Source: Nanobdellota archaeon (lineage in GTDB: Archaea; Nanobdellota; Nanobdellia; UBA10117; ARS21). Taken from it: a stretch of DNA of 35,669 bases. The translations under genes were made by a program, and so were the position numbers. Shown here in pieces: positions 17,868 through 20,460 of this stretch (position 1 is the stretch's first letter; every line of letters begins with the position of its first letter). The DNA lies in contig JAAZYP010000001.1 in assembly GCA_014239585.1 (NCBI GenBank), forward strand, positions 73,752 through 109,420, written 5' to 3'. Below the pieces are notes generated by a model. It searched no databases, had not been told where the DNA came from, and saw nothing but the letters and a program-made list of their open reading frames with translations.

Positions 17868-18071
17868 TTATTTCTTTGCTCCGCCAAGTCGAACCTTTTT
17901 TTGCTTGTTATATGAGTTAGTCCACTTAGTTTGAAGGGGTTTTCGTCCTAATTTTAAAAAGTTCTTCATTGCTTTACCATTTAAAAAATATAATACTCGG
18001 CCGCTGTTTCGAACTAACATTCGTCCCTTCCCTTTCGGAAGAGTTTTTCCACTAAATGAACATTCAACCAT
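17868..18071 (-). CDS. rpl24e: 50S ribosomal protein L24e
   Basis: CSFSG...GKGRMLVRNSG...LGRKPLQTKWT; follows rps28e. Confidence 0.93.
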   Translation of the reverse strand: MVECSFSGKTLPKGKGRMLVRNSGRVLYFLNGKAMKNFLKLGRKPLQTKWTNSYNKQKKVRLGGAKK

Positions 18072-18337
18072 TATTTTCGACCCCTCTTTCCTGAACTTGC
18101 TTCAATTTCAGTTTGAGTTAACATTATAATATCTCCAACGCGAGTCGGACCATAAACATTTCGTCGCATAATCTTTCCGGCATCTTTTCCATCAAGAACT
18201 TTACATCGAACCAAAGTAACAACTTGTTTTGTACCTTCTCTACCGCTTAATTCTACAATTTCAGCAGGATATGCTTTGAGAAGCTTACCACTAAGATCAG
18301 TGTTTGATGATTGTTTCTTTGTTTCCTTTTCAGCCAT
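18071..18337 (-). CDS. rps28e: 30S ribosomal protein S28e (N-terminally extended)
   Basis: PAEIVEL.GR.G...VRCKVLDG...RNVYGPTRVGDIIML. Confidence 0.95.
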   Translation of the reverse strand: MAEKETKKQSSNTDLSGKLLKAYPAEIVELSGREGTKQVVTLVRCKVLDGKDAGKIMRRNVYGPTRVGDIIMLTQTEIEASSGKRGRK

Positions 18338-18873
18338 TATTTCGATTTTTTATCTTCTTTCGGTTTTTCAACCTTTTCTGCAGGCTTTTCTTCTTTCGGT
18401 TTTTCAACCTTTTCTGCAGGCTTTTCTTCAGATTTTGATTCTTCTTTAACTTCTTTCTTTGGCGCTTCAGCTTTCGGTTTTTCTTCTTTAACTTCAGCTT
18501 TCTTTTCAACCTTTTTTACAGGTTTTGCTTCACCGTCTAAAAGAATTTTAATATCTTTCAAAAGTGTTTCCATCATTTTTTTATCTGCAGATACAATTGC
18601 TACAGCCGCTGTTGCGACAGGTAGACCTGCAGCTGCACCCAATTCTGATTTAGATGGTACATCCACATGCATGATGCTCTTTTCTTTTGCAATTAAAGGC
18701 AAGTGCATAATAATTTCAGCTGGAGAACTGTCAGCAGCAGAAATAGATAATTTCGCTTCTCCTCGTTCTAAGCTTTTAGTAACTTCATTTACGCCCTTTC
18801 GGATTTTACCTTCCGATCTGGCATTCTCAATTAGAGAATAAATTCTTTCCGTAATGTCTTTTGTTAGTTCCAT
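18337..18873 (-). CDS. rpl7ae: 50S ribosomal protein L7Ae with Lys/Glu/Pro-rich C-terminal extension
   Basis: GKIRKGVNEVTKSLERG, PAEIIMHLP and SKSELGAAAGL; about 60-aa low-complexity tail. Confidence 0.96.
   Translation of the reverse strand: MELTKDITERIYSLIENARSEGKIRKGVNEVTKSLERGEAKLSISAADSSPAEIIMHLPLIAKEKSIMHVDVPSKSELGAAAGLPVATAAVAIVSADKKMMETLLKDIKILLDGEAKPVKKVEKKAEVKEEKPKAEAPKKEVKEESKSEEKPAEKVEKPKEEKPAEKVEKPKEDKKSK
18353..18429. repeat. Perfect 36-bp tandem repeat (2 copies plus 5 bp) in the rpl7ae tail
   Basis: TCTTCTTTCGGTTTTTCAACCTTTTCTGCAGGCTTT occurs at 18353 and 18389 and encodes EEKPAEKVEKPK twice. Confidence 0.95.
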
Positions 18874-18874
18874 T

Positions 18875-18900
18875 TTAACCTCGTTAACCTCATTGGTTAA
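18875..18900 (-). promoter_or_regulatory. Kink-turn/K-loop element in the rpl7ae 5' UTR covering the SD sequence
   Basis: RNA reads UUAACC-AAU-GA-G-GUUAA-C-GA-GGUUAA-A-AUG: 6-bp C-stem, 3-nt bulge ending in U, tandem GA/AG, a G-C pair and a loop. TTTTTAAA TATA at 18930-18923 places the TSS near 18900. Confidence 0.78.
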
Positions 18901-18962
18901 TGAATTTGATTAACTCAAACTCTTTAAAAACTTTATTATTGGAGTATAGTTTGGAGTAAACA

Positions 18963-19280
18963 ATGGATAAATACACCAAACGAATTGACAGAAACATAGA
19001 AAAATTATCTGAAACTAGACAAATATTTCTGGAAAGTTTGATGAATAAATTAGAACATTCGTTAGATATAAAATCTGAATTAGAACCCGAATATAATTCA
19101 TTATCCAATACCGATAATGATTATCGAGAAATCTTAGATGTTTTGTCGGACGAAGTTATGAATGCCAATCGGATCAAAATGATGGATTATTTTGACAAAG
19201 CATCACCTTTCATTGCAATGGAATATTTTATGAGAAATATAAGTATCCAAGAAATGAAACTTAACGAATCTTCCGATTAA
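18963..19280 (+). CDS. Hypothetical protein (105 aa, acidic, helical)
   Basis: Fills the gap between rpl7ae and gltX. TTTATTAT lies about 25 nt upstream and GGAG precedes the ATG. Confidence 0.65.
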   Translation: MDKYTKRIDRNIEKLSETRQIFLESLMNKLEHSLDIKSELEPEYNSLSNTDNDYREILDVLSDEVMNANRIKMMDYFDKASPFIAMEYFMRNISIQEMKLNESSD

Positions 19281-20460
19281 GTGCGTTTAGTGTTTTGTAA
19301 ACTTCTTTCTTTTCAACAGTTTTGTCTCGTTTTGTCGGACCAATTTCATAAAAATATTTTATCAAAGTTTCAGGTTTAAATCCACGTTTTTTCAAAGAAG
19401 ATAGTGTTTCGATTTTTGAATCATCATATCCCGAGAATTTTCCCGATTCGACACCTTTTCGAATTTCAGACGCAGAAATATTCATACCTTTAAAATTAAT
19501 TCTTCCAAGATGAATATATTCAGGAATTTTCCAATTCATAAATTTGAAAATATTTTGTTGACGTCTAGTTTGATCTTCATGATCTTTTCCACGGATAACG
19601 TGTGTTAATTTTAAATCATGATCATCAATTGCTACTGAAAAATTCATCATTGGCCAAACTTTATATTTTTTACCAACACGAGGATGAGAGTTAGTATTTA
19701 TTCTAAATGCAATCCAATCGCGAAGTGCTGGATTTTTTAATCGAGAATCAGTTTTTACTCTAACAACCGCTTCACCCGATTTGTATTTACCCATAAGCAT
19801 CTTATTCCATTTTATCAAATTATCTTTAATTGAATTGTTAGTACCTAGCGGAGATTCACCATTTCTAATTTTTTTACGAATAAGTTCTGGATCTTCTTCA
19901 CAAACATACAAATGTCCAGATTTCAATAATTTTTCACCATATTTGTAATATGATTCAATTCGGTCAGATTGAATATATAATTCATCCGGTTTTCCAACTA
20001 ACCATTCAAAATCTCGCTCAATCATTTTGTAAAATTTTTTGAAATTTCCGTCAGGATTAGTATCTTCAATTCGAAGAATATGTTTTCCATTATATTTATC
20101 TCGATAAATTTTATTTATTGACAAGACTAAAGCGTGTCCGATGTGAAGCGGCCCCGAAGCAGATGGTGCAGAACGAACTCTAAATATTTTTTTAATATTT
20201 GGAAGATCAATTATTTCTTTCTTAATTATTTCTTTCGGATCAAAAAAGGAAGGATTTATTTTTTTCAATTTTTCAATTTGATCAGAAATCGATAATGCAT
20301 TGACTTCAGAAATTGTTTTTGCAACTGTTTTTGCAACAGTTGAAATTTTAGATTTATATTTAATAGTAGGTATGATTTTGTTAATTACTGCTTTTTGATT
20401 AGCCTTACCTTTAAATTCAACTGCATTTTCTAAAGACAGTTGAAGTATTTTCTTCCTCAT
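19261..20460 (-). CDS. gltX: Glutamate--tRNA ligase, archaeal type, lacking the C-terminal anticodon-binding domain
   Basis: Archaeal N-domain, then APSASGPLHIGH, LRIEDTNP, NPALRDW, WPMMNFSVAIDD..L.LTHVIRGKDH and ISAS (KMSKS-like). Only 399 aa. Confidence 0.88.
   Translation of the reverse strand: MRKKILQLSLENAVEFKGKANQKAVINKIIPTIKYKSKISTVAKTVAKTISEVNALSISDQIEKLKKINPSFFDPKEIIKKEIIDLPNIKKIFRVRSAPSASGPLHIGHALVLSINKIYRDKYNGKHILRIEDTNPDGNFKKFYKMIERDFEWLVGKPDELYIQSDRIESYYKYGEKLLKSGHLYVCEEDPELIRKKIRNGESPLGTNNSIKDNLIKWNKMLMGKYKSGEAVVRVKTDSRLKNPALRDWIAFRINTNSHPRVGKKYKVWPMMNFSVAIDDHDLKLTHVIRGKDHEDQTRRQQNIFKFMNWKIPEYIHLGRINFKGMNISASEIRKGVESGKFSGYDDSKIETLSSLKKRGFKPETLIKYFYEIGPTKRDKTVEKKEVYKTLNALNRKIR

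Follow-up and report, generated by a model that had tools for sequence, protein, structure and literature searches.

A K-loop leader of rpl7ae with a predicted decoy hairpin in a marine DPANN archaeon

L7Ae leaders and the rpl7ae leader of a Nanobdellota archaeon

The ribosomal protein L7Ae binds a kink turn (K-turn) in the 5′ untranslated region (UTR) of its own messenger RNA and occludes the ribosome binding site in Sulfolobus acidocaldarius (Daume 2017, PMC5539422) and in Archaeoglobus fulgidus (Huang, Ashraf and Lilley 2019, PMC6298567); our comparisons draw on excerpts of these two papers. In the latter, the free leaders are argued to be unstructured, aided by high growth temperatures. 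Here we describe the leader of rpl7ae in a 35,669-nucleotide stretch, hereafter the window, of a Nanobdellota archaeon (assembly GCA_014239585.1, contig JAAZYP010000001.1, positions 73,752 to 109,420). Its sequence can fold either as a K-loop that hides the Shine-Dalgarno (SD) sequence or as a competing hairpin that leaves it free, and we suggest that the two probably form a switch governed by L7Ae.

The minus strand at 18900..18871, immediately 5′ of rpl7ae, reads UUAACCAAUGAGGUUAACGAGGUUAAAAUG, that is, UUAACC AAU GA GGUUAAC GA GGUUAA A AUG. UUAACC is a perfect complement of GGUUAA, which occurs twice, as a distal copy beside the start codon and as a proximal copy within the loop (Table 1). 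Pairing with the distal copy (fold A) gives a helix, a 3-nt bulge and tandem G.A/A.G pairs, the signature of a K-turn, and the 7-nt terminal loop that directly follows the G.A pairs (GA-GGUUAAC-GA), with a possible G:C closing pair, makes it a K-loop. The SD GAGGU (18882-18878), which can pair with the 3′ end of the 16S rRNA of this genome (...GGATCACCTCCTTTT), joins the non-bulged GA to the three bases that open the C-helix 3′ strand, and so lies inside the folded K-loop. Pairing with the proximal copy (fold B) would close a 6-bp hairpin with an AAUGA loop and leave the SD single-stranded. The element (18900-18875) stands between the TATA box and the ATG, its inclusion in the transcript depending on the predicted start. 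The original prediction had read the leader and both pairings in this way and had proposed a two-state switch; the observation is confirmed, and the interpretation as a whole is partly supported.

The leader resembles the published l7ae 5′-UTR K-turns in its place in the 5′ UTR of an L7Ae gene, in a 3-nt bulge that ends in AU and is followed by tandem G.A/A.G pairs, in an SD in or beside the helix that the protein stabilises, and in the repression by occlusion of the ribosome binding site that is proposed for it. It differs in having a 7-nt loop (hence a K-loop) where the published K-turns have a non-canonical helix, in a C-helix of 6 bp, and in C:G at -1b:-1n, which is found in none of the six UTR K-turns presented in PMC6298567. 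Whereas free RNA is unstructured in the model of Huang 2019, it is predicted here to form a 6-bp competing hairpin from a copy of the SD strand, and the host is a mesophilic marine DPANN archaeon, unlike those of the published systems. By a rule quoted in PMC6298567, a Watson-Crick G:C at 3b:3n, as here, makes folding induced by ions less favourable, in keeping with a dependence on protein. The yeast RPL30 (L30e) K-turn, cited in the same paper, is likewise bound in its own transcript by an L7Ae-family protein that blocks expression, although the protein is a different one, the setting is eukaryotic, and both splicing and translation are affected; the excerpted text mentions no decoy hairpin for it (PMC6298567). 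For Nanoarchaeum equitans, the survey of 121 species by Daume 2017 gives no SD or UTR, and no other DPANN name appears in the portion consulted (PMC5539422). A full-text literature search, which brought up no relevant papers besides Daume 2017 and Huang 2019, found neither a competing hairpin in an L7Ae leader nor a description of any DPANN L7Ae leader. Self-repression by L7Ae through a leader K-turn is thus already known, and the second copy of the 3′ strand in the loop is the new feature in this family.

Two further kinds of RNA invite comparison. The K-loops (box C′/D′) of archaeal C/D small RNAs (sRNAs) share the C-helix, the 3-nt bulge with U at L3 and the tandem sheared G.A pairs closed by a short loop; they sit in guide RNAs and not in an mRNA leader, and the C/D box consensus has U.U at 3b:3n, where this leader has G:C. 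The order to which the host belongs, unlike C/D sRNA systems, appears to be without Nop5. In bacterial riboswitches and ribosomal protein leaders, a sequestor and an anti-sequestor helix exclude each other, and a ligand decides whether the one that covers the SD is formed. The present leader has the same two exclusive helices; it differs from those platforms in that the proposed ligand is L7Ae, the device is about 28 nt long, and the competing 3′ strands are identical.

The K-loop class and the predicted transcript start

The comparison set of 190 L7Ae loci was drawn from 40 related genomes, with 80 loci each contributed by species genomes and by metagenomes. Of these, 164 had an assignable start codon; 15 and then 11 others were dropped, for want of a start or of enough upstream DNA. 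The pattern CC-NNN-GA-N3-25-GA-GG, ending 1-14 nt before the start, was present in 52 of these 164 leaders, 30 of them distinct. This pattern fixes two C:G pairs and the GA dinucleotides and leaves the bulge and the stem positions beyond free, yet among the 30 distinct leaders L2 was A in 27 and L3 was U in 29. Stem pair -3 formed in 25 of the 30 (A-U 16, U-A 5, G-U 2, G-C 2), against 14 in a slid control, and pair -4 in 20, against 8; positions -5 and -6 were no better than the control in the same 30 leaders (18 versus 18 and 14 versus 13). In a model-based alignment of 19 matches, which was fitted to the structure and includes nine seed sequences, the C-stem was 84.8% paired, four of its six pairs changed on both sides, and its covariation score of 0.202 compared with 0.086 in shuffles (0 of 500 reached it) and with at most 0.05 in slid controls. 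Members of the class come from records labelled Woesearchaeota, Micrarchaeota and Thermoplasmatota, among others, and loop length among relatives ranges from 3 to 24 nt. In every member the non-bulged GA and the next GG(U) make up the SD. The K-turn or K-loop reading first made from this one leader, with its consensus bulge and tandem GA, holds across many lineages, with a C-stem that covaries and always lies on the rpl7ae SD.

The element is also specific to this position. A sharper pattern, CC-NN-U-GA-N3-25-GA-GG, matched 11 times in the 888 kb of both strands of the host genome (G000), and two of these matches had an ATG within 10 nt. One was the rpl7ae leader; the other (contig C11, minus strand, 111099) lies inside an RNA polymerase B open reading frame (ORF) and was rejected. 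Five of the 11 fell on contig C14, and the four of them within about 5 kb of the 16S 3′ end are probably rRNA. A covariance model (R1) picked out the rpl7ae leader alone in the 444-kb genome, scoring it at 41.5 bits (E 8e-8); the next match reached 21 bits and falls within coding sequence without the GA pairs. Second-best matches of this kind (L192 in G000, L201 in G007 and L202 in G026), which lack the GA pairs and lie in or beside ORFs, were set aside as chance. Across the order, all eight strong R1 matches stood directly before rpl7ae, in family f1. The model is narrow (19 matches at E ≤ 1 in 43 loci, and matches in only 5 of 151 class genomes), performs poorly on divergent K-loops and is unusable for prevalence. 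Rfam gave no match at gathering score in the whole window and chance-level matches alone in 18700-19100.

Other lines were tried and set aside. Folding energy alone, with z-scores of -1.8 to -2.4, was not convincing as evidence, and a generic K-turn scan (stem of at least 4) gave 798 matches in the genome and was too unspecific; that the element goes beyond chance follows instead from its conservation, specificity and position. An upstream hairpin, GUUAAU/AUUAAC (18914-18896), and larger folds of 56 and 81 nt are unconserved in the closest relatives and lie upstream of the predicted start. A bacterial terminator call at 18881-18903 on the plus strand is the complement of fold B, and the bacterial promoter and terminator scan is inapplicable to an archaeon. 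Taken together, the comparisons among relatives make it highly probable that the leader is a K-loop through which L7Ae regulates its own synthesis.

Whether the whole element is transcribed depends on where the mRNA begins. The TATA 8-mer of the rpl7ae promoter also stands 21 nt before the ATG of seven other ORFs in the same genome; seven of the 13 cases at 20-24 nt fall at 21 nt, and three fall at 23 nt. Distances from the 6-mer core of the TATA box to the ATG, taken over 527 ORFs, likewise peak sharply at 21 nt (22 ORFs) and 23 nt (20 ORFs). The 21-nt peak is the signature of leaderless genes, whose transcripts begin at the A of the ATG, and many genes of this genome are probably leaderless. 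Because the spacing in leaderless genes is 21 nt, we place +1 at A18901, one base before UUAACC; the alternative spacing of 23 nt would put it at 18899. The conserved block begins at exactly this predicted base. Identity in the promoter spacer is 8/21 between the window's leader (L001) and L004 of lineage C, and 14-19/21 within the window's own lineage; the 28 nt that follow are identical at 28/28 between that lineage and lineage C, and the similarity of a diverged relative's contig to the window stops exactly at 18901. A single RNA run (oligo-dT) yielded a relative's 246-nt contig across 18794-18985, which passes through the promoter and so informs neither the start nor transcription. The start near 18900 that was originally expected is, in sum, supported by inference from spacing. 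SD matches of at least 5 nt preceded 38 of 526 ORFs, against 17 in a control window (the census used an 11-nt 16S tail, a 15-nt tail being swamped by A-rich words), and rpl7ae is one of the minority of genes in this genome that have a leader.

The competing hairpin and its alternatives

At 37 °C, the predicted energies were -4.5 kcal/mol for fold B, -3.5 kcal/mol for the fold A C-stem without protein and -0.2 kcal/mol for a third hairpin, in which UUAAC of the loop pairs with GUUAA of the distal copy. The order of the three was unchanged at 20 and 10 °C, with fold B at -8.5 kcal/mol and the fold A C-stem at -7.6 kcal/mol at 10 °C. Fold B, the alternative hairpin of the original prediction, is accordingly the predicted ground state of the free RNA. 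In the predicted ensemble of the native loop, the probability of the C-stem was 0.07 and that of a free SD strand 0.30, compared with medians of 0.62 and 0.0017 over all 16384 possible 7-nt loops; the native loop ranked 114th of the 16384 for freeing the SD (top 0.7%). Shuffling the native loop (L001) never freed the SD as well (0 of 300). Nature supplies a control in L203, a relative at class level that shares UUAACC, AAU and GGUUAA around a 9-nt loop without the copy: its predicted C-stem probability is 0.69 and its free-SD probability 0.001, so that it would be mostly closed.

The loop-shuffle test covered 14 K-loop leaders and the added leader L009, 15 in all, from 13 or 14 separate lineages. 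Apart from the native leader, decoys were significant in L014 (5/300) and L162 (10/300), with a weaker signal in L027 (26/300), which belongs to the lineage of L014. These decoys differ in sequence from the native one: in L014 and L027 a conserved ACCAUCG pairs with CGAUG of the bulged strand, and in L162 AUAGG pairs with CCUAU. In the otherwise diverged loops of L014 and L027, the conserved portion is the portion that pairs with the bulged strand, which gives independent support, at the level of sequence, to the view that decoys are selected in some lineages. A decoy that looked similar by eye in L009 (family f2) was unsupported, with a predicted C-stem probability of 0.73 and 271 of 300 shuffles freeing the SD as well or better.

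The native loop also appears to be under constraint. The core of the leader is present in 19 loci (18 distinct) from three lineages, between which the L7Ae proteins are 72-78% identical and third codon positions are about 53% identical (52/95, 52/95 and 50/95). Across all 19 loci the 7-nt loop is invariant (0/7 changes), the block varying at L1 (A or G), at the outermost base of the stem and in the spacer before the AUG. Were the loop evolving like third codon positions, the probability of such invariance would be roughly 1e-4, an estimate that ignores tree structure. The proximal copy is thus kept across lineages whose synonymous sites are saturated, which supports the alternative hairpin of the original prediction. 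Of the covariation that was to be sought in related rpl7ae leaders, the part concerning the C-stem of fold A was borne out; fold B gave none, all 19 family loci being identical.

One explanation for these observations is as follows. The rpl7ae mRNA would begin at about A18901, with a 5′ UTR of about 30 nt that would be little more than one L7Ae-binding K-loop, built from the C-helix UUAACC/GGUUAA, the bulge AAU, the tandem G.A/A.G pairs and a 7-nt loop closed by G:C. In free RNA, UUAACC would pair with the proximal copy to give the 6-bp hairpin, which is predicted to be the more stable and would be the first to form during transcription; the SD would stay single-stranded and the gene on. When free L7Ae exceeds the demand of rRNA and other K-turn sites, it would bind, lock fold A, hide the SD and stop translation of rpl7ae, and probably also that of the overlapping rps28e and rpl24e. 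The leader would then be a two-state switch that is on as decoy hairpin and off as L7Ae-bound K-loop, with exchange between two identical strands. By itself the stem is predicted to shut the SD away in a mesophile; with the 5′ strand engaged by a decoy, the leader would regain an on state, and the binding energy of L7Ae would pull the RNA into the K-loop. We consider this explanation as a whole probable, the transcription start, binding, repression and role of the decoy all being inferred. The thermodynamic and conservation arguments for two states incline us slightly towards them, and the decoy probably keeps rpl7ae on until L7Ae is in excess.

This interpretation must be made cautiously, however, as several points weigh against it. 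The decoy is not general, being not significant in 11 of the 15 leaders tested (L017, L030, L029, L170, L020, L102, L154, L134, L024, L097 and L009). L203, moreover, does without a decoy although its stem is identical. Because three elements are identical in all 19 loci, no covariation separates fold B from other reasons for conservation of the loop, and in lineage B the stem is 5 bp, not 6. K-turns are outside what the energy model describes, and the cell may live at a temperature other than 37 °C; the folding energy itself is unremarkable, the 30-nt minimum free energy of -4.4 kcal/mol (z -1.84) being equalled or exceeded in stability by 13 of 200 shuffles. Only 4 nt separate GAGGU from the AUG, a short spacing in a genome where 4-15 nt is seen. 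Lastly, the transcription start is a prediction, and a start at least 3 nt further downstream would weaken both folds.

One may postulate, in place of a switch, an ordinary L7Ae autoregulatory K-loop in which the proximal GGUUAA came from a 9-nt tandem duplication of the SD strand (GAGGUUAAC followed by GAGGUUAAA) that became fixed and is kept for loop contacts with L7Ae, for loop geometry or as a second SD, with fold B having no regulatory role. Conservation of the K-loop class without a decoy in most lineages would fit this account, as would L203 with its different loop and the want of covariation in fold B, and a spacing of 13 nt, that of the proximal GAGGU from the AUG, also occurs in this genome. 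Against it, loops do drift in other K-loop lineages, with 2/7 differences at 92% L7Ae identity and 7/19 at 84%, whereas here there are none in seven at 72-78%; the rank of the native loop among all 7-mers for opening the SD and the recurrence of loop-borne decoys of other sequence in L014/L027 and L162 argue in the same direction. We regard this alternative as unlikely, though deserving of real weight. Separately, duplicated K-turn strand motifs were seen in L009 and L036 (family f2), L009 having two bulged-strand units, and in L020 (f1 g3), which has AAUGAGCGA twice; duplication of K-turn strands seems from these sequences to be recurrent.

A structured leader that does not bind L7Ae, whose likeness to a K-turn would be a by-product of an AU-rich hairpin beside a GAGG SD and which would be tuned by RNA stability or temperature only, is distinctly improbable. 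L7Ae bound seven of the eight archaeal UTRs tested in the excerpted part of Daume 2017 (PMC5539422), and although generic K-turn patterns are frequent by chance (the 798 matches above) and no Rfam family matches the element, the unforced NAU bulge and the stem covariation occur specifically before rpl7ae in many phyla, and the element is unique in its genome. Still less probable is a DNA operator, in which the inverted repeat TTAACC-N5-GGTTAA and the direct repeat of GAGGTTAA (twice) over the transcription start would be bound by a factor repressing the operon. The whole block is indeed invariant at the DNA level, and archaeal repressors often bind across the start site; the distance between the stem strands, however, varies from 3 to 24 nt between lineages while the RNA features are kept, which fits an RNA fold and not an operator of fixed spacing, and no candidate transcription factor was seen adjoining the locus. 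A box C/D-like small RNA or other non-coding RNA gene in the intergenic region is scarcely credible, since the Rfam C/D snoRNA matches over 18868-18969 (17-20 bits, E 0.7-1.6) fall far under gathering scores of 40-60, the Nop domain was found in no genome of the order and full-length fibrillarin in one only (see below), and the element abuts the start codon.

The locus, its relatives and the meaning of the leader

Table 1 Elements of the rpl7ae leader, its promoter and the genes it precedes
Feature	Positions	Strand	Basis or remark
Promoter: TATA box TTTTTAAA (18930-18923) and A-rich BRE-like stretch (18940-18931)	18923..18940	-	kept in 17/17 aligned family leaders
Variable promoter spacer, predicted untranscribed	18902..18922	-	low identity between lineages
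Predicted transcription start: A after C, 22nd nt past the TATA box	18901	-	inferred from TATA-to-ATG spacing within the genome
UUAACC, 5′ strand of the C-helix (bulged strand), common to folds A and B	18895..18900	-	sequence and folding; positions -3/-4 covary across lineages
3-nt bulge AAU (L1-L3)	18892..18894	-	L2/L3 consensus among 30 distinct leaders
GA of the bulged strand (1b, 2b)	18890..18891	-	read from the sequence; fixed by the search pattern, hence no independent test
Loop of the K-loop, GGUUAAC; the decoy copy of the 3′ strand occupies its first six bases, 18889-18884	18883..18889	-	minimum free energy structure
GA of the non-bulged strand (2n, 1n), the first two SD bases	18881..18882	-	sequence
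GGUUAA, 3′ strand of the C-helix	18875..18880	-	paired in fold A, free in fold B
rpl7ae coding sequence, 178 aa	18337..18873	-	L7Ae domain at residues 2-108 and Lys/Glu-rich C-terminal tail; ATG 18873..18871
rps28e (18071-18337) and rpl24e (17868-18071)	17868..18337	-	each start shares 1 nt with the preceding stop codon

The product of rpl7ae matched Pfam Ribosomal_L7Ae at E 5.9e-23 and solved archaeal L7Ae chains at E 1.3e-26 over residues 2-108. The same-strand order, as originally stated through pop5, psmA and the exosome genes, is rpl7ae-rps28e-rpl24e-pop5-psmA-SBDS-rrp4-rrp41-rrp42, then rpoK and rps2, with rrp41 and rrp42 being two RNase PH genes. It had been proposed that the leader also tunes its neighbours; the 1-nt stop/start overlaps make translational coupling of rpl7ae, rps28e and rpl24e plausible, and for pop5, psmA and the exosome genes we found nothing in support. 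The host genome is 444 kb in 21 contigs, 87% complete, with 32% G+C; together with the nearest named L7Ae relatives, which are in records labelled Pacearchaeota, Woesearchaeota or Nanoarchaeota, this agrees with the DPANN-like host expected at the outset. The sequencing runs that contain the stretch are marine or seawater metagenomes.

Beyond its domain, the L7Ae protein carries a C-terminal extension of about 70 aa (18337-18545, minus strand), Lys/Glu-rich and with repeated EKPAEKVEKPKE-like units, without counterpart in the solved L7Ae chains (117-155 aa). Order-wide relatives align up to query residue 176 or so, and the tail seems to be widespread. The depth of metagenome contigs peaks across 18484-18571, which may reflect the repetitive composition of the tail. 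On the other side of the promoter, a divergent 105-aa ORF (18963-19280, plus strand) has no Pfam match and a GGAG 6 nt before its ATG; the near-palindromic T5A3 box of the rpl7ae promoter stands 32 nt upstream of it (region 18921-18965, plus strand), and one TATA element may serve both directions. The 3′ end of this ORF overlaps by 20 nt (19261-19280) that of a convergent class I Glu/Gln-tRNA synthetase gene (19261-20460, minus strand).

None of the order's 39 genomes gave a match to the Nop5/Nop56 domain (PF01798), and only one gave a full-length match to fibrillarin (PF01269), on a 600-base contig; controls were positive in four model archaea. Two further PF01269 matches lie just over the cut-off, and these and the rest cover only the methyltransferase core. 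From these searches, box C/D ribonucleoproteins (RNPs) appear to be missing from the order, while L7Ae and the K-loop leader are kept.

Relatives also carry other kinds of L7Ae leader. In records labelled Woesearchaeota or Aenigmatarchaeota, the motif CUGA(A/G)UGAGG followed by a hairpin stands 20-45 nt upstream of a separate GGAGG SD (L034, L045, L047, L048, L051, L052, L057, L059, L092, L101, L104, L132, L140 and L149), and it looks like a second architecture of the L7Ae leader. In family f3 (L015, L023, L026, L028 and L095), the L7Ae ATG follows a TATA box by 21-23 nt, and neither an SD nor a K-turn is present; these genes look leaderless, and feedback through the 5′ UTR has probably been lost or moved.

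The history of the window's leader can be sketched more tentatively, in a reading that we hold to be possible though somewhat short of probable: a protein-sensing switch of about 28 nt, working by strand exchange, would have arisen when the ancestor of the family duplicated 9 nt of the SD strand in tandem within an older, simple K-loop that survives in L203, and the decoys of L014/L027 and L162 would mark a general adaptation. If so, the 5′ strand would migrate between identical 3′ strands at no net base-pair cost, and L7Ae would decide the outcome. Decoys would let a feedback of the thermophile type, unstructured until bound, work in cold-living, AU-rich archaea in which the stem alone closes the SD.

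L7Ae feedback is among the few characterised archaeal translational controls, and L7Ae/K-turn pairs are standard parts of synthetic translational switches; a natural version with a decoy would show how such feedback is adjusted when the stem of the RNA is stable even with no protein bound. The design would be compact, with 28 invariant nucleotides at the predicted 5′ extremity of the mRNA and an on state that is well defined; a simple test system would need a single protein and a 31-nt RNA. The leader would extend L7Ae autoregulation to genome-reduced DPANN archaea whose genes appear to be mostly leaderless and in which a search for box C/D machinery did not find it, and in such an order it may be the only K-loop left for L7Ae to recognise.

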